From: an uncultured bacterium
GTDB lineage: Bacteria; Babelota; Babeliae; Babelales; Vermiphilaceae
Reading direction: 5' to 3'
DNA length: 64,000 nt
Assembly (NCBI GenBank): GCA_963695335.1
Contig: OY968764.1
Span: 1,120,001-1,184,000 of the forward strand
In this document: piece after piece, positions 4,278 through 39,828 of the stretch
Position numbering within the stretch: the first letter of the stretch is position 1
Layout of the letters: each line of letters starts with the position of its first letter
Notes under the pieces: generated by a model
Databases searched by the model: none
What the model was told of the DNA's origin: nothing
What the model saw: the letters and a program-made list of their open reading frames with translations, nothing else
Program-made: the position numbers and the translations under genes

Positions 4278-4426
4278 GTCTAGCATACACCTTCGATCCG
4301 TTTTCGCCTACGGCTTCTTCGGACTCACGCTACGTCGGACAGTCTTCGCTTCTGCTATCAAACTTTTTATATTATCAAAGTTATTATACTGCGGCGCAGC
4401 CAGACGAAGCTCGTTAGAGCGAAGAC
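4278..4426 (-). repeat. tRNA 3'-trailer structured element, copy after tRNA-Phe
   Basis: Starts immediately after CCA; closely similar to 39681-39828 and related to 33078-33223 and 33404-33550. Confidence 0.85.
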
Positions 4427-4501
4427 TGGTGCCGGGAGTCGGAATTGAACCAACGACGCGAAGCTCTTCAGGCTTCCGCTCTACCACTGAGCTACCCCGG
4501 C
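4427..4501 (-). tRNA. tRNA-Phe (GAA)
   Basis: Minus strand GCCGGGGTAGCTCAGTGGTAGAGC...CTGAAGA loop...GGTTCAATTCC...GGCACCA; cloverleaf folds. Confidence 0.97.
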
Positions 4502-4569
4502 GATGACAAAAAACTATCAATGTATGCAATTATGGTACCTGTTTGTAGGTTTTTGTCAATAAAAAGTGA

Positions 4570-5328
4570 CTATTTCTTCTTACAATATAAAGGCTTCGCC
4601 CTTCCCGCCTTCATAGCCTTAGGAACTGGGATCAAATCTCCCGTAATAACATCAAAAATATATGCATATATTGGAATGTTTGATGGTATCAATGGATGAT
4701 TACGAATTTTTTTAACGTCTTCAAGCATTGATTCAGCCAATCCATGGTTAATAGTGCGCCAATCAATACATCCATCTTTACATGGATTTGTTCCACAGCA
4801 ACTGCTAATATTAACCCACTTACATGCACTATTAGGCTCTAATGGACACAATGTTGTGTTACAGTTTTTAATAAGTTTTGCTTTCACTAAACTGCCGCGT
4901 AATAAATTATTCATAACATGATCAGTAAATTTCTGCATACCACAATCAGTGTGTTGGATAAGCATGATTTGTTCTACTTCAAGCAATTTATAAAGAATAA
5001 TAATTGACCTAATCCAATCTTCAGTCACCCTTCCTCCAGCATTACGCAAAATATACGTCCCAGGAGTCACTGTACTTAAAAAATCATTCAAACGATAATC
5101 CATACAGGTAATAATAGCCGCTTTTCTTACAGAAAACATATCCGGTTGAGGAATATATGTTTCTTCAAAAACGTCATCTGCGGCTAAAACTTGTGCAAGA
5201 AATTCACTATTTTCTGCATTGATAACTTCTTCATGCTTATTGCAAGGTGCCAACTTCTTTCTCGTGACATCATCATCACAAAGCGTAAGCATGCCACACA
5301 TCAGTAATGGCAATAACAATCTCTTCAT
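4570..5328 (-). CDS. Beta-class carbonic anhydrase with N-terminal signal peptide and Cys-rich insert
   Basis: Zn motifs CMDYR and HTDCG, RNAGGRV, YIFDVITG; start MKRLLLPLLMCG after aaaggag RBS. Confidence 0.85.
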   Translation of the reverse strand: MKRLLLPLLMCGMLTLCDDDVTRKKLAPCNKHEEVINAENSEFLAQVLAADDVFEETYIPQPDMFSVRKAAIITCMDYRLNDFLSTVTPGTYILRNAGGRVTEDWIRSIIILYKLLEVEQIMLIQHTDCGMQKFTDHVMNNLLRGSLVKAKLIKNCNTTLCPLEPNSACKWVNISSCCGTNPCKDGCIDWRTINHGLAESMLEDVKKIRNHPLIPSNIPIYAYIFDVITGDLIPVPKAMKAGRAKPLYCKKK

Positions 5329-5344
5329 CGGAACTCCTTTGTTT

Positions 5345-5440
5345 GTATTCGTGGTAAGCCTGTTTAATCCCATCTTCAGTTTCTTTCAACGGGGACCCCG
5401 ATTGGAACAAAGTGGAAATTGGGGCAAAACCATACGAACG
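5345..5440. repeat. Family-1 REP interrupted by a family-3 (GGGGWCCCC double hairpin) element
   Basis: ttcgtggtaagcctgt[ttaatcccatc...ggggacccc...ggggcaa]aaccatacgaacg versus uninterrupted copy at 3232-3265. Confidence 0.8.
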
Positions 5441-5554
5441 CTCTTTTTATTTATCTTTCACTATTCTATAATTCATATCAAATTGCCAAGGATATCATTC
5501 TTTGTTATCTTGTTTACATATAAAAACCACTTTTTTATCCTTGCGGAATAATGT

Positions 5555-6592
5555 ATGAAAAGCCTCTCACAAGAACTTGAAATAATTAAAAAAGAACTTA
5601 CGGCAGCCATTGCCGCTGCAACCAATGAAAGCTCCTTGGAAGCAGTCCGTGTTGCATTTTTAGGCCGTAAAGGCAAAATTGCTGACCTCATGGAGCAGCT
5701 TAAAAATTTATCTATCGATGAAAAAAAAATAGTTGGTCCACTTCTCAACCAACTCAAAACAGATGCTCAGCAACAACTTGATGATCGCATAACATCACTC
5801 AAACAAGAAGAATCTGCTCAGAAAAAATTATCTCACAAAAATTTTGATGTTTCTGCATACAAACACACCGAACTTAAAGGAACATCTCATATTTACACTC
5901 AAATCATCGCTGATCTAGAAGATATTTTTATATCTATGGGATATAACATAGCTGATGGCCCTGAAGTGGAAAATGAGTTCTATAACTTTGAATCACTCAA
6001 TATTCCTGCAGATCATCCAGCGCGCGAGGCAGAAGATTCATTCTTTTTAGAAAAAAAGGGTCTTCTTTTGCGCACACAATGTTCTAACGTGCAAGTTCGC
6101 GTTATGCAAAACTCCCAACCCCCCATTGCTATCTTTTCACCAGGAAGAACGTATCGACAAGAAGCAACGGATCAAACACATGATTATCAATTCACACAGT
6201 ACGAAGTGATGCTTATTGATAAAAATATATCAGTGAGCAATTTGCTTGCCACTGCGCGCACTTTTCTACAAAGAATATTAGACAATGACACTATCGAAAT
6301 CAGAGCGCGTCCTGGATTTTTCCCATTTGTCGAACCAGGAATAGAAATTGATGCTTCATGTCCTTTCTGCACAACAGGTTGCTCTGTTTGCAAGCATACA
6401 CGCTGGATTGAGCTGTTTGGTAGCGGCATCATTCATCCTAATGTACTACGTGCTGGTGGCATTGACCCAACTGTTTATTCTGGATTTGCATTGGGTGGTG
6501 GTGTTGAACGCCTTGCCATGATTAAATATGGCATTAATGATATTCGCTTGTTCCATTCCAGCAAAATAAAATTCTTAAACCAGTTTGCTTAA
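5555..6592 (+). CDS. pheS: Phenylalanine-tRNA ligase alpha subunit
   Basis: NFESLNIPADHPAR, LLRTQCS, FPFVEPG, GVERLAM; CxxC...CxxC insert; pheT not adjacent. Confidence 0.96.
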   Translation: MKSLSQELEIIKKELTAAIAAATNESSLEAVRVAFLGRKGKIADLMEQLKNLSIDEKKIVGPLLNQLKTDAQQQLDDRITSLKQEESAQKKLSHKNFDVSAYKHTELKGTSHIYTQIIADLEDIFISMGYNIADGPEVENEFYNFESLNIPADHPAREAEDSFFLEKKGLLLRTQCSNVQVRVMQNSQPPIAIFSPGRTYRQEATDQTHDYQFTQYEVMLIDKNISVSNLLATARTFLQRILDNDTIEIRARPGFFPFVEPGIEIDASCPFCTTGCSVCKHTRWIELFGSGIIHPNVLRAGGIDPTVYSGFALGGGVERLAMIKYGINDIRLFHSSKIKFLNQFA

Positions 6593-6664
6593 ACCCAATT
6601 CTCTTGAATAGCACGCACCTATTTTATTATATTAACCCAGAGTCTATCTTGAAATTTAATCCTT

Positions 6665-6740
6665 CCCGCTCGTCCTGAGCCTGTCGAAGGATATCTTCGA
6701 GCGCTCGAAAGATACCCTTCAACAAGTTCAGGGCCAGCGC
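6665..6740. repeat. Family-1 REP doublet (REPIN-like)
   Basis: cgctcgtcctgagcctgtcgaagg-atatcttcgagcgctcgaaagata-cccttcaacaagttcagggccagcg inverted pair. Confidence 0.85.
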
Positions 6741-6798
6741 ATGAAAAGAATTTATAAAGATAAATTCGTAAAAAATAGGGAAAAAGAAAGGGATTGTG

Positions 6799-7743
6799 AT
6801 GAAAAAGTTATTATCCACTGTTTGCATGCTTTCTCTAGCACAAACATCTCAAACTATGGAAACCGCTATGAAAATAAATAAAGCTGTTATTCCTGCTGCT
6901 GGTCTTGGAACACGTTTTTTACCTTACACAAAATCAATTCCAAAAGAAATGCTACCCATCTTAGAAAAACCATCAATCCAAATAATTGTTGAAGAAGGCC
7001 TTGGGTGTGGAATCAATGATTTTATTATTATCGCTAATGATGATAAACAAGCGCTGAAAAACTTTCTTTCTCATCAACCAGCACTTGAAAATGAACTTGC
7101 TGAACGAGGAAAATTAAATCTTCTTGAAGATCTCAACAAAATTATCGATGCGGCACAATTTAATTTTGTTCCACAATCAAAAGCACTTGGCCTTGGCCAT
7201 GCTGTACTCCAAACAAAAAGCGCTGTTGGTGACGAATATTTTGGTATTTTTTTACCTGATGAAATTATGGTTGGTGAAGTTCCTGCACTTGCACAACTTA
7301 TTGAAGTTGCACAAAAATATAACGCTTCAGTTATTGGGGTGCTCGAAGTTCCTCACGATAAAGTGTCATCATACGGTATTATTTCTATCAGAGAACAGTT
7401 AGAAGATGGAGTTTTTGACGTTGCTGAATTAGTTGAAAAACCTGCAGTTGAGCGAGCACCATCAAATTTAGCAATTGTAGGCCGTTATATTCTTTCTCCG
7501 CGCATTTTTGCTTCTTTGGAACGCACCAAACCTGGCGCCGGCAATGAAATTCAATTAACTGATGGAATTCTTGATATGATGCGCAATGGTGAGCGTGTTA
7601 TTGCATACGTTATGAATACATCACGTTATGATGTTGGCAATCCACTTGGATGGCTCCAAGCAAATATTGATATTGGATTTAAAAACCCAAAACTTGGCCC
7701 TGCTTTAAAAGAATATTGCGCGAAATTAATGGCAACTAAATAA
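6799..7743 (+). CDS. galU: UTP-glucose-1-phosphate uridylyltransferase with signal-peptide-like N-terminal extension
   Basis: KAVIPAAGLGTRFLPYTKSIPKEMLP, GLGHAV, VEKP, EIQLTD. Confidence 0.93.
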   Translation: MKKLLSTVCMLSLAQTSQTMETAMKINKAVIPAAGLGTRFLPYTKSIPKEMLPILEKPSIQIIVEEGLGCGINDFIIIANDDKQALKNFLSHQPALENELAERGKLNLLEDLNKIIDAAQFNFVPQSKALGLGHAVLQTKSAVGDEYFGIFLPDEIMVGEVPALAQLIEVAQKYNASVIGVLEVPHDKVSSYGIISIREQLEDGVFDVAELVEKPAVERAPSNLAIVGRYILSPRIFASLERTKPGAGNEIQLTDGILDMMRNGERVIAYVMNTSRYDVGNPLGWLQANIDIGFKNPKLGPALKEYCAKLMATK

Positions 7744-7745
7744 GT

Positions 7746-8951
7746 TTATATATGCAGCTCCTGATAGCCATTATCATAAACCTTAGAATAACTATAGCCA
7801 AAAACTTGATGCTGATCTTTATGATCCTGCAACATTTTGGCTATTTCTTTTCTCTCATCACTCACCTTAGGAGCATGGAAAAGATGCTTTAACTTGGGGG
7901 TATTATAATCAATCGCTGTTTTACCTTTCTTATCTTTTAAACGCACATCAGCATCTGCACTATTCAAAAGCTCCATAACCGCCTCAAGATTTTCTTTCTT
8001 AACTGCATAATGCAGTGGAGTCTTTTCATAAAAATCTCTACCATTCACATATGCACCTTTTTCAAGCGCTTTTTTTATAACAGTATCAAACCCACGCTCA
8101 GCAGCATAATGTAACACAGATTTTTTACCATCTTTGGTAGCACTTTCAACGGGTAAAATATCTTTATCAATTAAATCAAACAATACCTGCTCATCAGCAT
8201 AAAATATAACATATGGGAATGCTCTATCATCTACACAACCTCCACACATATTTTTTATAAGGTCCGTATTATGTGATAAAGATGCATTATAAAATATAGC
8301 ATCTATGTCATAATCTGTGCCTGTTTTTAACAAATCAAATACAGTTAATCCACTTTCTGACAAAATTGTATTAGCTTTATCTATTTTCTTAGAATCTTGA
8401 GAATCTATTGCTTCCCTTACATAGCGGAACATACGCCTATGAATATTTTTTAAACGACTATAATGCTCACGATAGCAACGCATTTCCTCTTGTATTGTTA
8501 TTTCTGGCTTTCGATGATGCGCTTTTTCCCCTTTTATTATTACCTCATACTTCTTTTTGTTTTTTCTAATACATCTTTCAATATCGCCCTTTCTTATATT
8601 TCTATGATGAAACCATACATGCTTGAACATCTGTTCATCATACCTCAGCGCAAAATGAACCAACATCTTAGTACATTGATAATAACTCTTCGCACAATGA
8701 TTACATGCATATGTTGAACACACATCATCACGCGAATAGGAACAATTCCGATCGGTATCATACAACTGATTATAATATTTAGATAATTGTTTAAGACGGG
8801 ATATCTCCTGAAACGTAAGCCATGATTGTATCTGATTACGAGCAATATCTTGGGGCAATAACATCATACTTGATGTTACCGGTTTATTTTTTTCCATGGA
8901 ATATAAAGGGCTCATGATAACAATGAACAATACTATAAACTGTTTGTACAT
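7746..8951 (-). CDS. Exported F-box-like + ankyrin-repeat protein
   Basis: Signal peptide ending SME; LLPQDIARNQIQSWLTFQEISRLKQLSKYYNQL (F-box-like); ankyrin repeats SVLHYAAERG, TPLHYAVKKEN, GKTAIDY. Confidence 0.85.
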   Translation of the reverse strand: MYKQFIVLFIVIMSPLYSMEKNKPVTSSMMLLPQDIARNQIQSWLTFQEISRLKQLSKYYNQLYDTDRNCSYSRDDVCSTYACNHCAKSYYQCTKMLVHFALRYDEQMFKHVWFHHRNIRKGDIERCIRKNKKKYEVIIKGEKAHHRKPEITIQEEMRCYREHYSRLKNIHRRMFRYVREAIDSQDSKKIDKANTILSESGLTVFDLLKTGTDYDIDAIFYNASLSHNTDLIKNMCGGCVDDRAFPYVIFYADEQVLFDLIDKDILPVESATKDGKKSVLHYAAERGFDTVIKKALEKGAYVNGRDFYEKTPLHYAVKKENLEAVMELLNSADADVRLKDKKGKTAIDYNTPKLKHLFHAPKVSDERKEIAKMLQDHKDQHQVFGYSYSKVYDNGYQELHI

Positions 8952-9146
8952 AATCAATACATCCTCACTTTGTTTTTTTGAACATAAAACAAATAACAAT
9001 TATGTACAACGTCAAGAATCAAAAAATCAAGAAAAAGGAGAGAAACCCCGCAACAACAACCATCACCCTTGTATTATCACCCTCAAAAATTATATCTTAT
9101 GAATATCAAGCTCTTTGCGTCATAAGCCTAACGATTAAGGGTGGCA

Positions 9147-10058
9147 ATGAAATATGCAAAAAAAATAGTTTGTTGTATCGCAATACTCAACAGCATTGCA
9201 TTGCCCTATACAACTGATAAAACCAATAAAAATTACATACAACGCCGAAATCAAAAAACAAAAGAACGGCGAGATGGTACACCGCAAGAGCGCGCACAAC
9301 GAGCTGATAAACCATGGTTGCGCGAAAATCCTCCCGCAAGGCGCCGTGTCACGTGCACACTCGCAGAAGTAGCAAGCGATGCCATATGGGTTAATTTAGG
9401 TCTTTTTTCATGGGATTCACTCAAAATATTTGCAACCACAGCACCTTTTTTTGTTGGCGCTCGTATGATTGATGAAAAATTGCATCACTGTTTTTTTGAT
9501 CAAAGACATAAGAAAAATAGATATGAACCTGCTCAATGGGTTAAAGAAACTGCACGTTTAAGTATCGGAATACCAATTACATTATTGGGATTACAAGCTG
9601 TTTTCAGCCACAATGATGATATGCAAAGAACCAGTCAAGTTTTTTTGACTGGTATGCCGTTTGTATTACTCGCAAAAGATATTATCAAAAAACTTGATTT
9701 TGATGTCTGCAAAAGACCGTTTCATGAAAAGTTTGCAAAACATCAACGTAAATTTGGTGGATTTCCTTCAGGACATTTAGCTGAAGCAACATATACCGCC
9801 GTACTCTATGGCATGCGCTTTGGTCCAAATTTTGCATTGCCTTTGGGTGGCGTTGCGGTATTTGTTAGTATAATATTCTTATCAAGTAACCGTCATTATC
9901 TCTCTCAAATGATCGCTGGTGCTGGTTTTGGTGCAATGTATGCATTTTCTGCCAACCGCCTCATTGATTCAAGATTAGCACACAAAAGAGACTTTCAACT
10001 TGGTCTAACAAGAGATGATTATGGCCAACCTGCAATGCAACTGTCTATGAAATTTTAA
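9147..10058 (+). CDS. PAP2-family phosphatase (membrane)
   Basis: KRP, FPSGH and SNRHY motifs with hydrophobic helices. Confidence 0.85.
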   Translation: MKYAKKIVCCIAILNSIALPYTTDKTNKNYIQRRNQKTKERRDGTPQERAQRADKPWLRENPPARRRVTCTLAEVASDAIWVNLGLFSWDSLKIFATTAPFFVGARMIDEKLHHCFFDQRHKKNRYEPAQWVKETARLSIGIPITLLGLQAVFSHNDDMQRTSQVFLTGMPFVLLAKDIIKKLDFDVCKRPFHEKFAKHQRKFGGFPSGHLAEATYTAVLYGMRFGPNFALPLGGVAVFVSIIFLSSNRHYLSQMIAGAGFGAMYAFSANRLIDSRLAHKRDFQLGLTRDDYGQPAMQLSMKF

Positions 10059-11094
10059 TATTTTTAATTTGTTCGTATTGATTGATAGCTTCCTGTAACA
10101 TACTAACCGCAACTTTTAATTGATTAGCATGCGTGGATATATCAAGAGCTCCTTGATTATATTCCTGCAATAATTTTTCAAAAGGTTCCACTGATACTAC
10201 TGTATTTTTTATAACTTCCTGCGGGATACGCTTTAAAAAACTAAGCCCAGAAGAAAGCAACGCTATCTGCTTCATCTGGTAGTAATGCATCAACTCTTGC
10301 TGCGTGGGTAGCCTATTAAAATAAGCATTCAAAAATAGTTTCTCATGATGAAAATTAGTTACAAAAAATAAGCCCACAGTACCCAAATCATAAAAAGGAT
10401 CATCTTGAGCTGCATCTTCAAAATCAATAATATATAACCGATTTCCCGAAAAAATAATATTACCTGGATTCAAATCACGATGTGTTGGGGCAATAATATC
10501 TGAACGATTTTTAATAATAGAATCGATAATATTTTGTAAGACTTCATAACTAATAGACTGTGGAATTTTACCTTCTTTATGTACATAATCTAATTTTTCT
10601 TCAACTTCCTTAACCTTATCTCTCACTAATGGAAAATCTGGACCTGTATGTATTTTACGTAAAGATTTTCCTAATGCTCTGTACGTATCATCATTCATTC
10701 TATCAGCTTGCGTAAGAGGAGTTGGTTTAATGTATTCCATTATAATCCATCCCTCGTCAATATCCGACGCATACAAATGAGGACCCCAACTATTTTGGGA
10801 TGCAATAGTTTGAACAGCAACTTCTCTTACCTTACTCGCTTCTGACCGATGCCTCATAAATCTCACAACATAATGCTGATCATTACTATCTATTTTATAC
10901 AACTCTGACTCTGACATTCCTCCTTTCAGAGGAACTATTTTTAAATCCTTTGTGCCAGCTAATGCATATAAATTTGATAAAACATTAGTTTGCAAAAATA
11001 TTGATGGAATAGACGGCTTTTTTACCTGCAACGTACATAAAATAAAAGCTGCCAATAAGAATATACATCCTAATACTTTGATCTCTTTTTTCAT
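10045..11094 (-). CDS. Choline/aminoglycoside phosphotransferase-family kinase with N-terminal hydrophobic segment
   Basis: LKGGMS, HRDLNPGN, IIDFE, DPFYDLG motifs. Confidence 0.85.
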   Translation of the reverse strand: MKKEIKVLGCIFLLAAFILCTLQVKKPSIPSIFLQTNVLSNLYALAGTKDLKIVPLKGGMSESELYKIDSNDQHYVVRFMRHRSEASKVREVAVQTIASQNSWGPHLYASDIDEGWIIMEYIKPTPLTQADRMNDDTYRALGKSLRKIHTGPDFPLVRDKVKEVEEKLDYVHKEGKIPQSISYEVLQNIIDSIIKNRSDIIAPTHRDLNPGNIIFSGNRLYIIDFEDAAQDDPFYDLGTVGLFFVTNFHHEKLFLNAYFNRLPTQQELMHYYQMKQIALLSSGLSFLKRIPQEVIKNTVVSVEPFEKLLQEYNQGALDISTHANQLKVAVSMLQEAINQYEQIKNIKIS

Positions 11095-11183
11095 TATTTT
11101 TCTCTTGCTTTATAAAAAATTTTATTTGATCTTAACAAAAATTACACAATCTTAATAATAGACTATACAAACATAGGAATATC

Positions 11184-12020: not shown

Positions 12021-12023
12021 CTT

Positions 12024-12143
12024 GCACCCTTCGATACATTTTTCTTCGCTTACGCTATGAAAAACACTCAGGGCGAGCGGAGTGAGAGATCTTTCTTTCC
12101 GCTCGCCCTGAGTGTTTTGTCTTCAAAACGTATCGAAGGGTGC
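12024..12143. repeat. Long family-1-like inverted repeat between convergent genes (may also terminate transcription)
   Basis: gcacccttcgatac...cactcagggcgagcgga / tccgctcgccctgagtg...gtatcgaagggtgc. Confidence 0.8.
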
Positions 12144-12162
12144 GAAAATAATTAGCTGGTAG

Positions 12163-12789: not shown

Positions 12790-12867
12790 ATCACGTTCCT
12801 CAAAGAATGTGGAATAATGCCCATCTAGTATAGCAGGATTTATAATTAAAAAAAATGACGCTCCTTT

Positions 12868-21723: not shown

Positions 21724-24126
21724 TCAGGATGAGCGCGAGCGCATCAAAAATGATAATACTGAATCGCTATTTAATGAAAGTGAATCAATACCCTCTTTAA
21801 TTAAAAATTCAGCAATATCAGGATAATCCGATGGTGCTTGACCACAAATGCCAATATATCGTTTATTTTTATGCGCACCTTCAATTGCCATTGCCATCAT
21901 TATTTTAACTGCTTCATCACGTTCATCAAACAATTCTGCAAGAATTGTAGAATCACGATCAACACCCAAAACCAATTGTGTTAAATCATTTGATCCAATA
22001 GAAAAACCATCAAAATAACGTGCTAAATTCATCAATCATAATCACATTTGATGGAACTTCACACATCATTACAAATTCCAAATCATTTAGTCATGCTTTA
22101 ATCCATGTTTTGCCATTTCAGCTTCAACCAACTGTGCTTCTTGCACCGTGCGCACAAATGGAATCATAATTTTTATATTTTTTAAACCCATCACGTCACG
22201 CAGCGTGCATAAGGGCTGTACATTCCAATGCAAACGCTTGCTTGTAACGTTCATTGTAATAACGTGATGCTCCACGAAACCCAATCATCGGGTTTTCTTC
22301 TTCTGGTTCAAAATAAGCTACCACCAATAAGATTACGATACTCATTACTTTTAAAATCAGAAAAACGCACCGTTACTGGTCGTGGATAAAAAGCTGCTGC
22401 AATCATACCAATACCTTGTGCTAGACGTTCAACAAAAAAATCTGTTTTTTTACTGATATGCAGCAGTTATTTCATCTATTTTAGCTTTCATTCTTTATCT
22501 TTAACTTTTTCAGGATGAATAAGTGCCATGGGATGAATTTTGATAAGATTCGTGATAATAAATTCCATACGCGCAAGACCAACTCCTGCAACTGGTAAAA
22601 ATGATGTCTGAAATGCACTATCAGGATCAGCAATATTAACCATAATATCAACTGTTGGTTTGGGGATATCTGTAAGAGCTATTTTTTTAATGGTATATTC
22701 CAATTTTCCCTTATAAACAGCGCCTGTAGCGCCTTGAGAACAATCGATCGTTACCACTTCTCCAGTTTTTATTACAGCAGTTCCGTTATCAGTCCCAACA
22801 ATTGCAGGAATACCCAATTCTCGGCTCACAATTGCTGCATGGCACGTGCGCCCACCACGATCAGTAATAATACCTGCTGCACGCTTCATTGCAGGAACCC
22901 AATCAGGATCAGTCATTGTTGTAACAATAATCTCACCATCTTTAATTTTACTAATATCTTTGGCACTTTTTACTACACGTGCTATACCAGATACAATTTT
23001 GTGACCAATACTCAAACCAGTCACAATAGTTTCTTTTTTTGCACCGTTTTTTATAATATAGCGCTGTAATGCAACTTCTTTTTTACCACCATAAATGGTT
23101 TCTGGGCGTGCTTGCACAATATACAATTTCCCATCATGTCCATCTTTTGCCCACTCAATATCCATGGGTGACCAGACTTGTCCTTCGAAGCTTTAGCGAA
23201 GTAGGATTTCTTTAATTTTGAATAATAGTTTTCAATAGTAACCACGAACTGTGCGAGTTCAATAATTTCTTTATCAGTTAATGCAAAAGTATGCTGATCT
23301 TTCTTTGATACTTTTACTGTTTTTATATGGGCATGCCCATATATAATCTTTGTCTTTTTATCACCACATAATTTTTTAATAATTGGTGTAAACCCTTCGC
23401 AAGCGTGAGTTTATGCACAACAAATTCATCTGGAGTCACCAAGCCTTGTACAATTGATTCACCAAGTCCATACGATGCATCAATCATCACCACATCTTTA
23501 AAACCAGTTTCTGTATCCAATGAAAATGCAACTCCAGAAACTGCACCATCAGAACGAATCATTTTTTGTACACCAATAGAAAGCGCAACTTTAAAATGAT
23601 CAAATCCTTGATCAATGCGATACATAATTGCACGATCAGTAAATAGAGATGCTATACTTTTTTTGCATGCATCTAATAACTTTTCATCACCAACCACATT
23701 TAAAAATGTATCTTGTTGACCAGCAAATGATGCTGTGGGTAAATCTTCAGCTGTTGCAGAGGAACGAACCGCAACATCAATATTATGTTTCTTATACCGA
23801 GTGGAAAGTTCATGATACGCTTGCAGAATTTCTTGTGCCAAATCATCTGGCATTGTTCCACTCATAATAAGTTTACGAATTTCAGAACCAACTGTATGCA
23901 CGTTTTTTGTACCATGCAGTTGCTTCATAACTGATTTCATTTTTGCAAGCAACTTATTTTCATTAATATAGTGCCAATACGCATCTGCTGTTATGGCAAA
24001 TCCCATAGGCACTCTAATCTTTTGTGATGAGAGTTGCGTTATCATCTCACCCAATGATGCATTTTTTCCACCAACCTGGCTAACATCAGCAAGACGTATT
24101 TCATCAAAATATTTTATATAGCGCAT
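21724..24126 (-). CDS. ppsA: Phosphoenolpyruvate synthase, several apparent frameshifts (error or pseudogene)
   Basis: [85 protein letters not shown] across frames. Confidence 0.92.
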
Positions 24127-31099: not shown

Positions 31100-31125
31100 T
31101 ACACACAAACAACTTTTTTAAAAAT

Positions 31126-32391: not shown

Positions 32392-32491
32392 AAAGCAACC
32401 TCATTTTTTAGCTAACAGTATTTAAAATATTTTTATCTTATCCTGGAGTTAACATAGAAAAAGTACGCAAATATTATCAAGGCAAAAAAAT

Positions 32492-33010
32492 CTAAACATT
32501 ACCAAGCTTAAATCGATCAACTAACTCATCCAACTCTTTTGCATTCTTTACTACAAAAATTTTCTTTTGATCTTTGTAGCTATTCAATGAAAATTCAATT
32601 GCTTGTTTTTGTTTTTTATTAAAACTCCACACATATTTCAGAAATTCCCAACTCGGAAACCTTTCAGGACATCCAGGAGCGCTTGAAAAAAATACTTTAC
32701 CAAAATTCAAAAACGCTCTTTTAAATATTCGATACAAACAAATATACAACGGTATATCTAAAAAAATAATAACATCTGCCTGAAAAAATCTATATTCGGA
32801 CACTCTCATCGCCATGCCCTCAATAATCCATGAATCACGATCACACAAATCATAATGTGTTTCTACGAACTCATTATAATCTGGTCTTTGCCAACCAGGC
32901 TTCCAAAAATATTGATCCAAATGAAAAAGGGGAATATGTAAAATGTTATGAAGTTGGAGAGCTAACGTTGATTTACCAGAACCAGGACTGCCGATAATTG
33001 CTATTTTCAT
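32492..33010 (-). CDS. P-loop kinase, FlaR/'topology modulation protein' family
   Basis: IIGSPGSGKSTLA, HLDQYFWKPGW, WIIEG, GCPER. Confidence 0.85.
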   Translation of the reverse strand: MKIAIIGSPGSGKSTLALQLHNILHIPLFHLDQYFWKPGWQRPDYNEFVETHYDLCDRDSWIIEGMAMRVSEYRFFQADVIIFLDIPLYICLYRIFKRAFLNFGKVFFSSAPGCPERFPSWEFLKYVWSFNKKQKQAIEFSLNSYKDQKKIFVVKNAKELDELVDRFKLGNV

Positions 33011-33077
33011 ACTATCTCCTGAATACAAAAAAAAAGACCAACTTAAAAAGTTGATCTTAATTTTACATTTAATAATC

Positions 33078-33223
33078 TGGCCGCGCCATACGAAGCTTTA
33101 GCGAGAGTCCGTCTACGTTCTTTGAACTACGTCGGACAGTCTTCGCATTTGCTATCACAGTTTTTGTAATCGCCAAATATTTCTTATTGGCGCAAGCCAG
33201 ACGAAGCTCGTAAGAGCGAAGAC
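33078..33223 (-). repeat. tRNA 3'-trailer structured element, copy after tRNA-Asp
   Basis: CCA|gtcttcgctcttacgagcttcgtctgg...gcgaagactgtccgacgtag-ttcaaagaa-cgtagacggac. Confidence 0.85.
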
Positions 33224-33301
33224 TGGCGGGGTGGACGGGACTTGAACCCGCGACCTTCCGCGTGACAGGCGGACGCTCTATCCGAGCTGAGCTACCACCC
33301 C
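33224..33301 (-). tRNA. tRNA-Asp (GTC)
   Basis: GGGGTGG acceptor, CTGTCAC loop, GGTTCAAGTCC, encoded CCA. Confidence 0.97.
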
Positions 33302-33308
33302 AAATTAG

Positions 33309-33383
33309 TGGCTCCTCGGGCAGGATTCGAACCTGCGACCCAACGATTAACAGTCGTTTGCTCTACCACTGAGCTACCGAGGA
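33309..33383 (-). tRNA. tRNA-Asn (GTT)
   Basis: TCCTCGG acceptor, CTGTTAA loop, GGTTCGAATCC, encoded CCA. Confidence 0.97.
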
Positions 33384-33403
33384 ATAATTTCAATTAAAAA
33401 GTA

Positions 33404-33550
33404 TGGCCATGCCATACAAAGCTTTAGCGAGCCCTACTTCGCTCTACGAGCTACGAAGGGCATACTTCGCTTTTAAACCATCAAACTTCTTTTCAAATAA
33501 AAGACAAACCTTTGAAAAATTGGCTTGCCATACGTAGCTTTAGCGAAGTA
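33404..33550 (-). repeat. tRNA 3'-trailer structured element, divergent copy after tRNA-Val
   Basis: CCA|tacttcgctaaagctacgtatgg...agcgaagtatgcccttcgtagctcgtagagcgaagtagggc. Confidence 0.8.
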
Positions 33551-33625
33551 TGGTGGGCGATGTAGGTTTCGAACCTACGACCCCCAGTTTGTAAGACTGA
33601 TGCTCTACCACTGAGCTAATCGCCC
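33551..33625 (-). tRNA. tRNA-Val (TAC)
   Basis: GGGCGAT acceptor, CTTACAA loop, GGTTCGAAACC, encoded CCA. Confidence 0.96.
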
Positions 33626-33782
33626 TTAAATCCCACCTAAACTTACTGAAGAAAGTGTAATGGATATAGCATCAAAAGTCAAAAAAATTATATCACATTT
33701 CTTTCACAACGATCCCTTTTGAGATATGCTACTAAAAATAATACGTTAAAAAAGCACTTTTTTACCTCTAGAAAGCTTTATC

Positions 33783-34529
33783 ATGACACTCCTTAATCTC
33801 CTCAGATCTCTCCTGCTTTTAACTATAATCCTCTACATCGCTCCGTTTTTTGTTGATGGCATTAAACAACAATACATCAATCTTCTCGAGCCACAAACCC
33901 CTATTGGTGTTATTTCTATCACTAAACCATTACACAATGAATACAACCCGACCAAAGAACTCCATTCGTTTTTTAAAGATCCCAATATTAAAGGAATTTT
34001 AATAAAAATAAACTGTGCTGAAACAGCTTCCGGCACAAGCCAATCTTTGTTTCACGACATCCGCTGCCTCAAAAAACAGTACCCTAAACCAATTATTGCT
34101 TTGGTAGAAAACATGTGCCTTTCAGGCGCTTATCTTATTGCAAGCGCATGCGACTATATCATTGCTCCAGAATCTGCACTCATTGGCAACATAGGACAGA
34201 CATTCAGCACACAAACCATACAACAGGCAACTGCTGAAAATAACGCCCCTAACTTAGAAAATGAATCATATCAACAACTGATAAAACAGATTGCCCTCAG
34301 CAGGAAATTATCGCTTACTACTGTTGCTAATTGGGCTGATGGAAAAATATTCACCGGAACACAGGCAATAGCTCTTGGATTGATTAATGAAATTGGTTCA
34401 CTATGCACCGTTATAAAAATTATTAAAGAAAAGGCTCTCATTGAAGGAGAAATTAAATGGATTGAGCATAATCACAGCAAACAATACCAATTAAATATCC
34501 TCTTTAGCAACGAGAGTGCAATATCGTAA
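33783..34529 (+). CDS. S49 (SppA-like) peptidase, short form
   Basis: N-terminal TM, KPIIA, SGAYLIASACD.I.A, IGNIG, ADGKIFTG.QA..LGLI. Confidence 0.8.
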   Translation: MTLLNLLRSLLLLTIILYIAPFFVDGIKQQYINLLEPQTPIGVISITKPLHNEYNPTKELHSFFKDPNIKGILIKINCAETASGTSQSLFHDIRCLKKQYPKPIIALVENMCLSGAYLIASACDYIIAPESALIGNIGQTFSTQTIQQATAENNAPNLENESYQQLIKQIALSRKLSLTTVANWADGKIFTGTQAIALGLINEIGSLCTVIKIIKEKALIEGEIKWIEHNHSKQYQLNILFSNESAIS

Positions 34530-35429
34530 TGTCTGGAAATCTAACGCTGGTTGTACAGCAATGGTGTAAAAAAGTTCTCCCTTATCGGCGCAAATAACTT
34601 TTCCCAACAAAAATCCTTTGGGAAACACTAACCCTTCACCGCTGGAAAGCACATCATCGCCTTCATGAATTGATTCTAGATGACTCACGTAACGCACATT
34701 TGTTCGAACTGTTTCATTAATACCTTCATGAATACCGCTTGCACCCTTGAATGACATTTTACTATTTTTACGAGCCTGCATAGTTTTATGCGCGTTTTGC
34801 AGTTTTGCAGATGAAGGCGCACACAGCACCGCTACCTTGCAATCAACATCTGTAATCAGAGAGACTTTACAATACCATGGATACAATTCAGTAACTCTTC
34901 CCACAATAGTATTACCATACAACGCTACCATATCTTTTTTTATACCATGCACGCTACCCATATCCATGAGAAAGAATTGATTATTACCTGAAAAATGACG
35001 TGCCAACACCTGCGCAATGCTCCCCTTCTGTAATGCATACCGTTTATTAAATCCACGCAACTCTTCCGTTTCATCCGCATACTGGCACATCGCTTTTAAC
35101 GCAATATGCTCTGTACAAAGATCCGCATATTTTTTTTGTAAATCACCAATGCTTTTTTCCAAATCTGCAACAGAATTTGAACGGTGCCTCCATCGCGCAA
35201 CAGGCTCAACAATCATCTGCTGAGCTTTTAATAACGGATATAAACAGCACGAAGCAACAATCTGGAGTATTGATGCTTGCCCTTCGTCCTTCGACAAGCT
35301 TACATCCTTCGCCGAAGGCTTCGGAGCACACGGCAGGATGAGCGGGAAGCGAAGTATAGGCTGCATCACAAAAAAAAATATCATAACAAAAACCACGCCA
35401 ATCACTATTCTATTTTTATACACAAACAT
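34491..35429 (-). CDS. mreC: Rod shape-determining protein MreC with REP-derived in-frame insert
   Basis: N-terminal TM, coiled coil, GIKKDM, VGRV, VSLITD, SSGEGLVFPKG..G.V. Confidence 0.85.
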   Translation of the reverse strand: MFVYKNRIVIGVVFVMIFFFVMQPILRFPLILPCAPKPSAKDVSLSKDEGQASILQIVASCCLYPLLKAQQMIVEPVARWRHRSNSVADLEKSIGDLQKKYADLCTEHIALKAMCQYADETEELRGFNKRYALQKGSIAQVLARHFSGNNQFFLMDMGSVHGIKKDMVALYGNTIVGRVTELYPWYCKVSLITDVDCKVAVLCAPSSAKLQNAHKTMQARKNSKMSFKGASGIHEGINETVRTNVRYVSHLESIHEGDDVLSSGEGLVFPKGFLLGKVICADKGELFYTIAVQPALDFQTLRYCTLVAKEDI

Positions 35430-35523
35430 TCACTCTTGATTTCAGTAACAAAAAATTTTATTGTAAACACACACATTATAAGGTAACTCTTAAATGAATT
35501 TTTTTTAATAAAAAGGATTTTTC

Positions 35524-36165
35524 ATGACATTATCTTGCAAAAAATTACTTACCATTTCTTGTGTATCATTTTCTTTATGCGCAATGGAACAAGAGCAATT
35601 ATCCACAACCAAAAACTCCTCTCAAATAGTATCAAAAGATCATTACAGCACTCTCAACAGTCTCTACAAAAAAACTTATCAAGCATTACGTAATTATAAT
35701 CCTACTGACAGCCAAACGATTACAAGCATATTTCAAATTCTTGATACAACAACACAATTACAAATTGATGGTTGCGGCGAAATGGAATGTGGAAAATTCG
35801 CCTACCAACAACATATACTCCAACAAGCCCCAATGGCCCCTTATATAAGTCTTTTTTTTAAAAGAATTGCAAAACACAATGCCCGCATGAAAGACAATAA
35901 TTTCACTCCATCAACACTAGAACAATTTATTCAGTACAGAAAAATACCTCTCATCAATGAAGCGATTGAAGAATCTAATTCATTTGATCTTGGAATCAAA
36001 GATGAAATAGACACACATACTACAGAATTTCTTGATTCTTACAATAAAACCACAAATAGTCTCAGCGAATACGAAAACCTGCTACAAAACATCACAAAAA
36101 TGCTCACCATGAACCCAGAAAAAACAAAACTTCTTGCTGACCTTATTTATGGCCCTAAACTTTAA
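35524..36165 (+). CDS. Exported hypothetical protein (signal peptide + AME)
   Basis: KKLLTISCVSFSLCAMEQEQ; aagga RBS. Confidence 0.7.
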   Translation: MTLSCKKLLTISCVSFSLCAMEQEQLSTTKNSSQIVSKDHYSTLNSLYKKTYQALRNYNPTDSQTITSIFQILDTTTQLQIDGCGEMECGKFAYQQHILQQAPMAPYISLFFKRIAKHNARMKDNNFTPSTLEQFIQYRKIPLINEAIEESNSFDLGIKDEIDTHTTEFLDSYNKTTNSLSEYENLLQNITKMLTMNPEKTKLLADLIYGPKL

Positions 36166-36251
36166 TTGTTACTACAATTTGCTGCATAACAAGACCTATG
36201 ATACAATGAAATGTACTCTTTTTTAGCTTTCAAAAAGAATAGGTTTTTTCT

Positions 36252-37406
36252 ATGCATTATGACATTTCAGCCAATACGCGCTCCTTATACATACATTGGC
36301 CATTTTGTCCGTACCGTTGCCATTACTGCCCTTTTGTGGCATTAGCATCGCACGATCCATTCATGGAACGGTATCATAATGCCCTCATCAAAGAAATTAA
36401 AGATTTTGGCAGCAATTACACCGAAAAACTACAACTCGATACCATTTATTTTGGTGGCGGCACTCCAAGCACCTACCCAGATCATCTGCTCACTGAAATG
36501 TTTGCCGTACTCAACCAATACTTCAGTTTCAGCGAAAACATCGAAATAACGTTAGAAGTGAACCCAGGAACGGTGCGCTTTGAACAGTTAGCTTTGTGGA
36601 AACAACTCGGGATTAATCGAATCAGCATTGGCGTTCAAAGCCTTAATGATGAAGTTCTTACAAAATTAAATCGCCTCCAAAAAGCGTCTGATGTGTACAC
36701 ATTACTCAGCACTGCTCCTGCCTATTTTGATAACATCTCTGTGGATGTTATTTTGGGTCTGCCAGGTGTTAGTACATCTGAATGGGAAAATATGCTTGCA
36801 ACAATAGTGACATGGAACATTACCCATCTATCGATGTACGTTTTAGAAGTTCATGATAGCACACCACTATTTTTCAATGTTAAATCAAAAAAAGTTACAT
36901 TGCCTTGCGATGACGATGTTATTAATGCATATTATTGGTCACGTGAATTTCTTGCCAATCATGGTTTTACGCAGTATGAAGTTTCTAGTTTTGCACGATC
37001 AGCAAAAGAATCACGACACAACACAACCTACTGGGAACGCCGACCATATCGTGGTTTTGGACTTGGTGCATGTTCATTTGATGGAACTTCCCGACTGCAA
37101 AATGAAAAAAATCTTATGAAATACTTGCAAAGCATTGAGCAAAACGATTATAAACCAATATTTGCTGAGACACTCACTCAAAATCAGGTATATACCGAAA
37201 AAGTTATGTTGGGATTACGAAGAATAAAGGGGGTTTGTTGGGAAGAAATTAGTAGCAGTTTAGATAGTGAACAGAAAACAAAAATCAGATCAACAATCGA
37301 TATATTGCAACAAAAAAATTTAGTTACAGAAAATAATGGTCGTCTACAGTTAAGTCCTGCGGGACTTGTAGTAGAAAATGAAATTATAACGCAACTTTCT
37401 TTATAA
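36252..37406 (+). CDS. hemW: Radical SAM heme chaperone HemW (HemN-like)
   Basis: SLYIHWPFCPYRCHYC, YFGGGTPS, RISIGVQS, YEVSSFA, HNTTYW. Confidence 0.9.
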   Translation: MHYDISANTRSLYIHWPFCPYRCHYCPFVALASHDPFMERYHNALIKEIKDFGSNYTEKLQLDTIYFGGGTPSTYPDHLLTEMFAVLNQYFSFSENIEITLEVNPGTVRFEQLALWKQLGINRISIGVQSLNDEVLTKLNRLQKASDVYTLLSTAPAYFDNISVDVILGLPGVSTSEWENMLATIVTWNITHLSMYVLEVHDSTPLFFNVKSKKVTLPCDDDVINAYYWSREFLANHGFTQYEVSSFARSAKESRHNTTYWERRPYRGFGLGACSFDGTSRLQNEKNLMKYLQSIEQNDYKPIFAETLTQNQVYTEKVMLGLRRIKGVCWEEISSSLDSEQKTKIRSTIDILQQKNLVTENNGRLQLSPAGLVVENEIITQLSL

Positions 37407-37445
37407 AAATATTTTAGTACTTGTTTTAAGTAAGTTAGGGTATCC

Positions 37446-37907
37446 ATGGCAAAACATGTTGGTGTAAAATTACCAGAAGATTTATTGGCGGTTTTAAAAA
37501 AAGGACAAACAGTAGGCATTCTTGCAACTTTTTCTGAAAAAGGTTTGCCAAACACAACTCCTGTTCAATGCATTGCTGCAAAAGGCCTTGAAAGCATTTT
37601 ACTCACCATTCACAAAGATCACACAGGTTACCATAACATGGTATGGCAAAAAAAAGTTATGATCTGCTTTTTAGATGAAGGAAACGTTGCATACAGTATT
37701 TTAGGACGAGCTGGCGTTGTACGCGCGCCATCTCTTGTTCATCCTTTTATGAATGTTGTACGCATTGATATTATTGATATTAAAAGCGATAGATCAGTCT
37801 TAACTAAAGTAGAAAGTGGTGTAAGATGGAGTTATACTTCACCTGACGCTGAAGAGCTTTCAAACGCTCTTATGGCTGAATTGGATGAACTCTCTGAATC
37901 ACTTTAA
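37446..37907 (+). CDS. Pyridoxamine 5'-phosphate oxidase-like split-barrel protein
   Basis: ILATFSEKGLPNTTP pattern; YSILGRA. Confidence 0.7.
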   Translation: MAKHVGVKLPEDLLAVLKKGQTVGILATFSEKGLPNTTPVQCIAAKGLESILLTIHKDHTGYHNMVWQKKVMICFLDEGNVAYSILGRAGVVRAPSLVHPFMNVVRIDIIDIKSDRSVLTKVESGVRWSYTSPDAEELSNALMAELDELSESL

Positions 37908-37930
37908 AATAAACAAAGGAGATTAGTATT

Positions 37931-39280
37931 ATGCATAAACAAACGATCATAACTGTAGCAATGTTCGGCCTCATATCACAAACAACTTTAGGGTCCGAAA
38001 CTTCTTCTATAGAAACAACTCAGCAAACCCAATCCTTCGCTAAAGCTTCGGAGGACAAGTCGGAGAGCACGGTAGAACAACCAGCTCAAGCAGAAACAAC
38101 AACACAAGAAGAAACATCAATCGTATCCCCAGAAATAGAATCTACTCCAACACCCCCTGAAGAAGTACCCCTACTTCGCCAAGGCTCCGAAGGGCAGGCA
38201 ATGATTCCGTATAAAGAGACTTCTTCTCATGAAGAATCTCCAGCCCTACTTCGCTCTACGAGCTCCGAAGGGCAAGCAGAATCAACAGAAACTGCAACAC
38301 CTCCAACAGAAGAAACTGTTACCATCCCTGGAGAAGAAACAGAGCCTACTCAGCCTACCATACCCACCATGCCTGAACCAATTAAAGAAGAACCAATTGT
38401 TATTCCAGAAGAACCAGAAAAAGCAGAAGCTCCTGCTGGAATTGATACCGTTTCACTTGAAAATCCACAAGGCAACTGGCTCTATAAACGTATTTGGTGG
38501 GAACGAGCAGAAGAACGTTATGAAAAAATTCGTCTTCTTGTTGACGCAATATGGGAATCACGCACTATCTTTTTTGTAAAACGTAATGAACTTGATAGAA
38601 ATGTTCTTGATCCTTTTTATCTGAATGTTGGTATTGGACAAGGAGAGCTACAAGTTATACTTTCTGAACTTGTTGATTTCTTTGAAAAACATCGTGAACA
38701 ACAAGGTGATTTAAATGAACAAGAGCGTTCATTATACGATACCATCGCAACAGAAGAAGAAGCATTAAAACAGCTTAAACAAGATGTTGAATCTGTTGCC
38801 AATCTTGATCATGCTATTGATGATGCTCTTGGCACACTCATGAATCAAATCAATCGTGTGCGCCAATATGAACGACAAGCATGGGAAAATTTTAAAGAGA
38901 TTGCTCATATTTTAAATGATACAAAAGCACGCGAACTGTATTACATGATAGAAGGTGCAGCACGTAATATAAAAAATATAAGCACCTACGTTGAACAAGA
39001 TTTTTTCACCCACTTCGCTAAACTCATTGAAGAAGCAACAAAACACGTTAATCGCGTACAAAGCCAAATCGAATCACTCAAAGAAAAAGGTGTAAGCTTT
39101 AAACGCCAAACAGAGCTTCTTGAACAAAAACAAGAACAGTTAGAACAAGAAGAGGAAGAAGAAGTTGCCCCAAAACCAAAATTAGGCTGGTTTGGTTGGA
39201 TTATGTCATATCTTAATAGTGTTTCTGATTTTATTTTCTCTATTATCAGAATGCCGTATGACCTAATTTTTGGGAAATAA
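37931..39280 (+). CDS. Exported/anchored protein: E/T/P-rich linker containing three in-frame REPs, coiled coil, C-terminal amphipathic helix
   Basis: Signal peptide; PQGNWLYKRIWW; REP translations SFAKASEDK, PLLRQGSEGQA, ALLRSTSSEGQA. Confidence 0.75.
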   Translation: MHKQTIITVAMFGLISQTTLGSETSSIETTQQTQSFAKASEDKSESTVEQPAQAETTTQEETSIVSPEIESTPTPPEEVPLLRQGSEGQAMIPYKETSSHEESPALLRSTSSEGQAESTETATPPTEETVTIPGEETEPTQPTIPTMPEPIKEEPIVIPEEPEKAEAPAGIDTVSLENPQGNWLYKRIWWERAEERYEKIRLLVDAIWESRTIFFVKRNELDRNVLDPFYLNVGIGQGELQVILSELVDFFEKHREQQGDLNEQERSLYDTIATEEEALKQLKQDVESVANLDHAIDDALGTLMNQINRVRQYERQAWENFKEIAHILNDTKARELYYMIEGAARNIKNISTYVEQDFFTHFAKLIEEATKHVNRVQSQIESLKEKGVSFKRQTELLEQKQEQLEQEEEEEVAPKPKLGWFGWIMSYLNSVSDFIFSIIRMPYDLIFGK

Positions 39281-39298
39281 ACTGTAAATTTTATTGAT

Positions 39299-39529
39299 GA
39301 GCGCTTTAATCATTTTTCCCCAATTTTACTTCGTTTCAATCGGGGACCCCATCGAAAGAAACTGAAGATGGGGGTGAGCTGATGAGCGCTCATTTTTTTA
39401 TATTCTCAAATCATATCTCAATCCTACTTCAAACCAGGTCAATTTTTCTTATTTTCAAAGAAATATTAACACAAATAGATGAAGACTTTCTTAAGCGCTC
39501 ATCCTGAACTTGTTGAAGGATTAAGCGCC
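39299..39529. repeat. Family-3 double hairpin (39317-39374) inside gagcgct-flanked repeat, plus single family-1 REP (39494-39529)
   Basis: ccccaatt..aatcggggaccccatcgaaagaaactgaagatgggg; gcgctcatcctgaacttgttgaagg. Confidence 0.75.
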
Positions 39530-39593
39530 CAGACTATTTAAAAAAAATTGATAATATCGAATTTATCGCTATACTAAAAAACATTGAAATAAA

Positions 39594-39680
39594 GCCGGGG
39601 TGGTGAAATTGGCAGACACGCAGCCTTGAGGTGGCTGTGGGAGAAATCCCATAGGGGTTCGAGTCCCCTCCCTGGCACCA
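39594..39680 (+). tRNA. tRNA-Leu (GAG)
   Basis: GCCGGGG acceptor, TTGAGGT loop, long variable arm, GGTTCGAGTCC, encoded CCA. Confidence 0.96.
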
Positions 39681-39828
39681 GTTTTCGCTCTAACGAGCTT
39701 CATCTGGCTGCGCCGCAACAAGATGGTTTTTGAAATAGAAAAAGTTCGATAGCAAAAGCGAAAACTGTCCGACGTAGCGTGAGTCCGAAGAAGCCGCAGG
39801 CGAAAACGGATCGAAGGCGTAGACGGAC
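39681..39828 (+). repeat. tRNA 3'-trailer structured element, copy after tRNA-Leu
   Basis: Closely similar to the tRNA-Phe trailer apart from the AT-rich spacer, with compensatory change gttttcgc/gcgaaaac. Confidence 0.85.

Follow-up and report, generated by a model that had tools for sequence, protein, structure and literature searches.

Why should four different tRNA genes of one bacterium run, with no gap, into the same structured element? The question is raised by a 64,000-nt stretch of DNA (the window; C1:1120001-1184000 of a single 1.37-Mb contig, 35.7% GC) from an uncultured member of the Babeliae (Dependentiae), in which ARAGORN calls tRNA-Phe, -Asp, -Val and -Leu as well as tRNA-Asn and -Met. 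Among named genomes, the nearest matches to its genes come from Dependentiae/Babeliales MAGs. A first, sequence-only reading had noticed a trailer behind the first four of these and had proposed either a tRNA-targeting non-autonomous mobile element, its spacer standing in for a cargo gene, or a two-state pre-tRNA trailer that controls 3' processing. Our analysis indicates that the trailers are probably gene-less, non-autonomous copies of a selfish DNA element that targets tRNA ends and whose nuclease would recognise hairpins in single-stranded DNA (ssDNA); complete copies carry a gene for a single-domain, SLX1-like GIY-YIG protein of ~80 amino acids directly behind the last hairpin of the trailer. 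The evidence lies in the sequences themselves: the architecture of the trailer, its covariation, its linkage to the gene and their shared phylogeny, turnover among relatives, the strand on which each hairpin faces and the units inserted in protein genes.

A common trailer at the CCA end of four tRNA genes

At all four tRNAs the first base of the trailer is the base right after the CCA, and all four trailers share one parse: arm a, hairpin-1 loop, arm b, small hairpin, spacer, arm c and hairpin 2. Arm a consists of the CCA plus 8 nt, the 3' end of arm b is TGG, and arm c is the reverse complement of CA+a; the small hairpin is of the form GGC..GCC, and the AT-rich spacer measures 41-50 nt in the four copies. 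In window coordinates, the parts are as follows.

4427..4501, minus strand: tRNA-Phe(GAA), called by ARAGORN, whose CCA (4429-4427) forms the left arm of hairpin 1
4400..4429, plus strand: Phe hairpin 1 (a:b), purine-rich face, antisense to the tRNA
4393..4402, minus strand: Phe small GGC..GCC hairpin, with a c(GCA)g loop on the antisense strand
4351..4392, minus strand: Phe AT-rich spacer, 42 nt
4340..4350, minus strand: Phe arm c, the reverse complement of CA+a
4278..4339, minus strand: Phe hairpin 2; its loop contains another, nested unit, and its 3' arm has decayed
33224..33301, minus strand: tRNA-Asp(GTC), called by ARAGORN
33107..33226, minus strand: Asp trailer (a 33216-33226, b 33197-33207, small hairpin to 33189, spacer 33148-33188, c 33137-33147, hairpin 2 33107-33136)
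33078..33106, minus strand: extra headless copy of hairpin 1 and small hairpin behind the Asp trailer, ending in GGCCA
33551..33625, minus strand: tRNA-Val(TAC), called by ARAGORN
33431..33553, minus strand: Val trailer, TAC subtype (a 33543-33553, b 33528-33538, small hairpin to 33522, spacer 33472-33521, c 33461-33471, hairpin 2 33431-33460)
33404..33430, minus strand: extra headless copy of hairpin 1 and small hairpin behind the Val trailer, ending in GGCCA
39594..39680, plus strand: tRNA-Leu(GAG), called by ARAGORN
39678..39828, plus strand: Leu trailer (a 39678-39688, b 39697-39707, small hairpin to 39714, spacer 39715-39756, c 39757-39767, nested hairpin 2 39768-39828)

On the plus strand, the face of Phe hairpin 1 shows a GAA/GAA internal loop and a c(GTTA)g mini-loop. 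No gene lies behind any of the four trailers. Much of what had been noticed at first holds: the Phe and Leu(GAG) trailers are the closest pair (86% over 120 nt), the Asp and Val trailers do repeat their leading motif at the far end, as the headless copies listed above, and tRNA-Asn and -Met have no trailer in this genome, yet tRNA-Asn has hairpin 1 in three congeneric genomes (G005, G015 and G107). A strict link of the Phe/Leu subtype to tRNAs ending in GGCACCA was rejected, as tRNA-Leu(CAA) has this end with another subtype and the trailer of tRNA-Arg(TCT) is 82% like that of Phe.

Covariation of the two stems

The three versions of a long-range stem quoted in the sequence-only reading, each including the CA of the CCA, are as given there, and the a:c stem covaries in an alignment of 37 of 39 candidate copies (two irregular ones were omitted) that required no complementarity beyond the fixed CCA, TGG and TG ends. 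It is 98.9% paired, with changes on both sides in five of its ten pairs, and its covariation score of 0.372 was reached in none of 500 shuffles. The local a:b hairpin that pairs the CCA is 95.9% paired, four of its eight pairs change on both sides, and its score of 0.323 was likewise not reached in 500 shuffles; in both cases the shuffles ignore relatedness. In control alignments that had been slid, pairing falls to 17-40%.

Strand polarity of the hairpins

When the hairpin-1 loops are read antisense to the tRNA, 51 of 90 distinct loops are of a stable type, compared with a single one in reverse form. The classes are Y(TT)R (21 loops), c(GNA)g (15), c(GNRA)g (7) and c(GNYA)g (8), and the 7 to 8 split between GNRA and GNYA reveals no RNA-type preference. 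The small hairpin has the same antisense bias (40 of 91 versus 1), and the purine strand of hairpin-2 and free-standing units carries mini-loops in 42 of 63 cases versus 1; on the pre-tRNA strand, hairpin 1 would instead close with loops of the kind C(AA)G or C(TAC)G. Two-base YTTR loops form in DNA. Mini-hairpins of the GCGNAGC/GCGNNAGC type are much more stable as DNA than as RNA (PMC13037366). Since hairpin 1 faces antisense and hairpin 2 sense, the arrangement suits a double-stranded DNA locus that is opened into single strands, and the two folds that had been described as mutually exclusive may belong to opposite DNA strands.

These observations bear on whether the trailer acts instead as RNA, a two-state pre-tRNA leader/trailer that masks or frees the CCA and tunes 3' processing or expression of the GIY-YIG gene. 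Such a role would fit with the start of the trailer exactly at the CCA of the transcript, with the pairing and covariation of a:c, in which the rare wobble pairs are for the most part G.U when read on the sense strand, with the probable transcription of the trailer (no promoter-like site separates tRNA-Arg from the gene), and with the survival of the a:b versus a:c alternative under the changed module order of the Planctomycetota described below. However, the stable-type loops of hairpin 1 are confined to the antisense strand; the repeat unit also occurs in ligD and at 58 non-tRNA sites, and of the 43 such cases that could be oriented only 15 have the purine face on the transcribed strand; and congeneric genomes lack the trailer or have a swapped subtype at the same tRNA. 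In Rfam 15, only tRNA and tmRNA were matched at the gathering score, with nothing credible over the trailers at relaxed E-values, and the nearest characterised analogue, SsnA, is reported as inactive on RNA (PMC11893778). The 3'-processing switch is thus poorly supported, and we regard an RNA role as improbable.

A GIY-YIG gene behind complete copies

The genome contains three small GIY-YIG open reading frames (ORFs) and a fourth PF01541 match within a 461-aa frame. Two of the three small ORFs (C1:205100-205345 and 895128-895370) lie directly behind trailers, one at tRNA-Arg(TCT) and the other at a Gln att-like CCA with two tandem trailers. Their 80-81-aa proteins match PF01541 above the cut-off, and a Tyr, Tyr, Arg, His and Glu, the predicted catalytic residues, are at least 90% conserved in 56 aligned rows. 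In the PDB, the protein matches SLX1 best (E 1e-7), followed by UPF0213; this suggests membership of the Slx1-like group, set apart from Ssn in PMC11893778; prokaryotic Slx1-like proteins are minimal stand-alone domains (PMC1564403). A model predicted by AlphaFold from the single sequence (pLDDT 48) was not used. No promoter-like site was found between tRNA-Arg and the gene, so that read-through from the tRNA promoter is likely.

The linkage extends to relatives, for which the best-match loci were fetched, yielding 91 distinct ORFs, 84 of them with at least 300 nt upstream. A same-strand tRNA or tmRNA end lies within 450 nt upstream in 53 of the 84, a strict a:c pair is present in 53, and at least three half-sites of the repeat unit in 69; paired half-sites were found upstream of the gene in 64 of 79. 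In the Planctomycetota (L059, L060, L061, L065 and L068-L070), the modules are permuted to a-c-hairpin 2-spacer-b, mostly behind tmRNA. In two Pelagibacteraceae loci (L077 and L078), the related ORF lacks a trailer and begins only 3 nt behind tRNA-Glu.

Longer copies with an ORF had been expected to hold it in the spacer. The gene exists, but behind hairpin 2: ORF-bearing copies keep the spacer size, with a CCA-to-arm-c distance of mostly 76-88 nt, and thus, while the idea of a tRNA-targeting non-autonomous element stands, that of a spacer in place of cargo does not. Seen by eye, the spacer has an IHF-like WATCAA-N4-TTT motif, which we take to be akin to the IHF motif of BIME-1, and the genome has two HU/IHF-family genes.

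A motif-first scan of metagenomes, with a pattern that bounded the spacer at 50-80 nt and so limited the lengths seen, gave 107 matches (103 non-redundant), in which the lengths of hairpin 1 and spacer are not anti-correlated (rho 0.05). Where there was enough upstream flank, 70 of 92 start at a tRNA or tmRNA CCA (24 types), and the gene lies within 350 nt in 28 of 87, including copies behind Phe (2) and Asp (3). With a covariance model, trailers were found in 98 of 150 genomes of the class, with 16 trailers in the present genome, and the gene is present in 87 of 150 relatives at E<=1e-18. Tabulated over G001-G149, which include kin that are not independent and incomplete assemblies, trailer and close gene homologue occur together in 84 genomes, the trailer alone in 13, the gene alone in 6 and neither in 46.

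On a protein tree built from 81 columns for 56 rows (the ORFs with a parsed a:c pair), the triplet after the CCA requires 11 changes, compared with 24.1 when shuffled and with none of 300 shuffles as low (49 non-Planctomycetota rows). The host tRNA changes 13 times against 17.3 (31 rows, 9 states), and the host family 20 times against 21.2, with 51 of 300 shuffles as low (40 rows). Together with the linkage, this indicates that gene and trailer travel together, switch tRNAs and cross host families. Some gene copies contain stops, and copy number varies among relatives.

As a single-protein query, the gene had no match in phage, plasmid and viral collections including INPHARED and IMG/VR; nine viral matches to the motif, none at a tRNA, look like chance. 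The ESM Atlas returned only generic GIY-YIG names, and NCBIfam has no family for the protein.

The repeat unit and its insertions into genes

Hairpins 1 and 2 are copies of one imperfect palindrome of 26-30 bp in which two CGWAG half-sites face each other. A symmetric-frame search found 84 such units in the genome, whereas five shuffled versions yielded 0-1. A tRNA or tmRNA precedes 26 of the units by no more than 250 nt; the other 58 lie elsewhere, 25 of them inside ORFs. Those of the window that stand free are listed here.

38169..38194 and 38244..38272, minus strand: two units in in-frame read-through within a 449-aa ORF (37931-39280)
23181..23206, plus strand: intergenic unit
63385..63410, minus strand: unit at the end of an ORF (62532-63398)

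The tie to tRNA 3' ends is strong for the CCA..TGG-armed form; the unit as such is repeated across the genome. Armed hairpin 1 is found at the CCA of 16 of 35 tRNA and tmRNA genes and at 6 of the other ~36,800 CCA sites, where four copies resemble att duplicates, a fifth is the ligD copy and the sixth is a member of a different repeat family.

The ligD copy, hairpin 1 plus small hairpin, is a 36-nt in-frame insertion whose site is empty in five of five congeneric genomes, which argues that the CCA-pairing hairpin is mobile alone, with no need of a tRNA. Free-form units constitute a 36-nt insertion in tsaD (empty in 5/5 relatives) and a 30-nt insertion in an ABC ATPase gene (empty in 4/4). Within ambiguous boundaries, CC is present at both ends of the insert in ligD and the ABC ATPase gene and may be a target-site duplication; in tsaD the picture is not clear. 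For ftsK, a jag-like gene, znuA and namZ, the empty-site alignments were too divergent or contained independent insertions. In several congeneric genomes, one and the same FtsK loop (L143, L279-L283) contains repeat insertions that differ and arose independently, and so does one loop of the jag-like gene (L147, L292-L295).

Palindromes of this kind invite comparison with REP/BIME/REPIN sequences and their RAYT transposases, and the whole could be an ordinary REP or MITE moved by an HUH enzyme (IS200/RAYT) or another transposase, with the GIY-YIG gene as a hitch-hiker. REPs are palindromes of 20-40 bp, some of them inside genes, that form dimers of opposite orientation 20-100 bp apart (Di Nocera et al., 2013, PMC3733652), and the units here often form inverted pairs, the trailers holding opposite-facing ones; arms a and c, moreover, form a perfect 10-bp inverted repeat, and the genome has three IS200 tnpA copies. 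Yet all three copies are more than 300 nt away from the nearest repeat unit, and the terminal GTAG or CGTC tag of REPs is missing, with GTAG/GAAG located inside the internal loop and the 5' flank of the purine strand mostly ending in (T)G. Unlike the ends of a MITE or classical insertion sequence, arm c is internal, with hairpin 2 and the gene beyond it, and in the Planctomycetota it directly follows a. There is a GIY-YIG partner instead of a RAYT, a fixed position at tRNA and tmRNA ends, and hitch-hiking leaves unexplained why the repeat is so tightly linked to the 5' side of the GIY-YIG gene, shares its phylogeny and occurs in the same genomes. We consider a REP or MITE origin very unlikely.

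One IS200-family tnpA is located in the window (46630-47058), with scores identical to those of the other two genome copies. A RAYT partner was rejected, since the three PF01797 matches are IS200 TnpA and the window copy, at 147.6 bits as IS200, reaches 29.2 bits as RAYT (cut-off 80).

Turnover at tRNA ends and genomic islands

Congeneric genomes differ at their orthologous tRNA-Val, -Asn and -Asp genes, which are followed by a full trailer, by hairpin 1 alone, by another repeat in its place, or by none of these. The subtype found here at tRNA-Phe is present at that site in none of eight relatives, and the same is true at Leu(GAG); sites are empty at both Phe and Leu in G087 and at Leu in G006, where ~170 nt corresponding to the Leu trailer are missing. 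The likeness of the Phe and Leu trailers within the genome and the change of subtype among relatives argue for copying between tRNA ends and not for vertical conservation. In one relative (G107, L320; one case among 221 distinct hairpin-1 contexts), a new hairpin-1 unit separates the Leu CCA from a complete trailer of older date, and a fresh CCA stands at the end of this unit. Contigs from sequencing runs gave mostly tRNAs of other organisms and no informative joint.

Islands occupy several of these ends. The tmRNA 3' end and its 162-bp trailer are duplicated near-exactly (C1:445162-445323 and 454726-454887) around a 9.5-kb block rich in ankyrin-like ORFs, in which no integrase was seen by eye. 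A tRNA-Gln island (L149, C1:885300-895500) with ORFs that by eye resemble those for integrase, primase and LAGLIDADG proteins moves trailer and GIY-YIG gene to the island's far end. At C1:494261-499980, a tRNA-Glu island has a 501-aa serine-recombinase-like ORF (also by eye) whose end runs into the tRNA. At the Glu att-like site, the trailer breaks off in the spacer and continues directly into the terminator found behind the gene in L010, L040 and L046, a junction that reads as gene loss by deletion.

Could nuclease and trailer be a pair domesticated by the host, which guards tRNA ends, where islands prefer to integrate, or cuts incoming ssDNA and has spread as a side effect? The capping of 16 of 35 tRNA and tmRNA ends is in keeping with this, as are the presence of the gene with conserved catalytic residues in 87 of 150 relatives and the restriction of transforming DNA by SsnA/NTS in Neisseria (PMC11893778). 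Islands are nevertheless present at capped ends (Gln, Glu, Arg and tmRNA), and 46 of 149 genomes have neither gene nor trailer. The variable copy number, the stops and a protein tree that ignores host family fit better with a parasite, and we give domestication little credence.

A proposed mechanism for the element

For the element as we picture it, a selfish DNA at tRNA ends, a complete copy would consist of CCA, hairpin 1, small hairpin, 40-50-nt spacer, arm c, hairpin 2 and GIY-YIG gene. We infer its cleavage and mobility as follows: the nuclease may recognise the purine face of an imperfect ssDNA hairpin (facing CGWAG half-sites across a G.A-rich 3x3 loop, with a DNA mini-loop as cap) and nick alongside it, as SsnA does at its own hairpin. 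Hairpin 1 would fold on the antisense strand, placing arm b over the TGG of the tRNA end, and a:c and hairpin 2 on the sense strand, with arm c over CA, such that the target CCA would be read by element-encoded complements on both strands. Recombination or template switching primed by the nick from a filled copy could then transfer hairpin 1, the trailer, or trailer and gene to other tRNA ends. The CCA would be kept or regenerated in the process and the tRNA left intact; the gene would be transcribed by read-through from the tRNA promoter, and islands that integrate at tRNAs would displace or duplicate trailers and could carry the element between hosts.

Several results weigh against this picture. 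With RNA or DNA parameters alike, nearest-neighbour folding prefers a:c whichever strand is folded, and the mean probability of a:b is <=0.04; standard models penalise the 3x3 loop, and the antisense fold of hairpin 1 thus rests on loop statistics and covariation, not on energy. Wobbles place a:c on the sense strand only thinly (3 G.T versus 1 A.C in 41 copies; 6 versus 0 in a second count from which two false matches were dropped). No conserved right end was found behind the gene, with paired half-sites downstream in only 13 of 79, no tRNA is called upstream of 31 of 84 ORFs, many of which resemble att duplicates by eye, and a few ORFs have no trailer at all (for example L057, L064 and L077). 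Co-occurrence and co-phylogeny would follow from physical linkage alone, among kin that are not independent, and the protein tree is built from 81 columns. The gene was found within 900 nt at none of 16 orthologous Phe and Leu loci in relatives, and the insertion boundaries, which are ambiguous by ~2 nt, coincide with or adjoin the three bases that open the left arm.

A more specific version, rather unlikely in our estimate, is that the SLX1-like nuclease is guided by the DNA of the element, arms b and c pairing with TGG and CA to create a branched substrate that is cut. If so, it would be a minimal DNA-guided homing or insertion system on the universal CCA end, regenerating that CCA and retargetable by a few base changes.

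The element would provide a substrate and a way of life for the uncharacterised tiny SLX1-like GIY-YIG proteins of bacteria, a large group of 717 clusters at 50% identity (E<=1e-10), counted irrespective of trailers. It would also represent a way to target all tRNA and tmRNA genes through their common CCA without breaking them. More generally, covarying 'RNA' motifs behind tRNAs should be viewed with caution, as they can be DNA structures.

Comparison with known systems

The element would function like Ssn and its SRM repeats and more loosely like REP/RAYT, Rickettsia palindromic elements (RPE) and SegB, yet it lacks the SRM motif, the REP tag, a RAYT and a match to phage. RPEs are in-frame palindromic inserts in conserved protein genes of an intracellular bacterium. 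Compared by description only, they share with the insertions found here the in-frame position in conserved proteins and the empty sites in relatives; the unit here is shorter (30-36 nt), has a candidate mobiliser and occurs in a tRNA-end form, and its nuclease would be a candidate mobiliser for RPE-like in-frame repeats. In the IS200/IS605 family (IS608), bases encoded by the element guide recognition of the target. The ssDNA hairpins and the element bases complementary to a short target are similar, whereas IS608 uses an HUH transposase in place of a GIY-YIG nuclease; that arms b and c act as guides is only a proposal. There is also a 'COG2827 RNA motif', on which no paper was found.

The closest likeness is to Ssn (cd10448) and its NTS/SRM repeats, in which a small single-domain GIY-YIG gene lies beside oriented, multi-copy hairpin repeats and for which the authors themselves propose a mobile-element origin (Chenal et al., 2025, PMC11893778). 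SsnA cuts ssDNA a few bases from the hairpin, on one strand only, and does not cut RNA or double-stranded DNA, and SRM repeats lie on both sides of the ssn gene in 42% (PMC11893778). In contrast, the published SRM pattern has no match in the 1.37-Mb genome, the unit here has an internal GWA/GWA loop and no CGTC tag, and the repeat is mainly 5' of the gene and anchored on the tRNA CCA; the word tRNA is absent from the main text of the Ssn paper (PMC11893778). The element would thus add a second family of nuclease/ssDNA-hairpin pairs beside Ssn, with cognate pairs at hand.

A GIY-YIG gene beside tRNA genes, seen here for 53 of 84 ORFs, is also reminiscent of SegB of phages T4 and T6, a free-standing homing endonuclease that spreads by cleavage and recombination (PMC13096335). 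SegB, however, is phage-borne and implicated in double-strand breaks (PMC13096335), whereas the ~80-aa protein here is chromosomal and accompanied by a covarying hairpin arm. A full-text literature search, with most subscription papers and the repeat-family supplements of PMC11893778 and PMC3733652 outside its reach, found no account of a hairpin that is anchored on the tRNA CCA and accompanied by a GIY-YIG gene.

Other repeat families and features

A second hairpin repeat family, of the CCTGAG..GTCGAAG type, has 188 pattern matches in the genome, 12 of them in the window. It is found on both sides of the third small GIY-YIG ORF (C1:565584-565799; L001/L148), which is UPF0213-like by eye, suggesting a second nuclease/repeat pair. 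A third family, with a GGGGWCCCC core and 62 matches, occurs behind tRNA-Ser(GCT), -Met, -Val(GAC) and -Tyr, and a related ACTTTT-ACCCAA..GGG unit also begins directly after the CCA at some tRNAs. Within the window, secD (39904-41458) is split into two ORFs by a change of frame near 40900, either a frameshift or an assembly error, and a 2113-aa ORF occupies 55662-62003.

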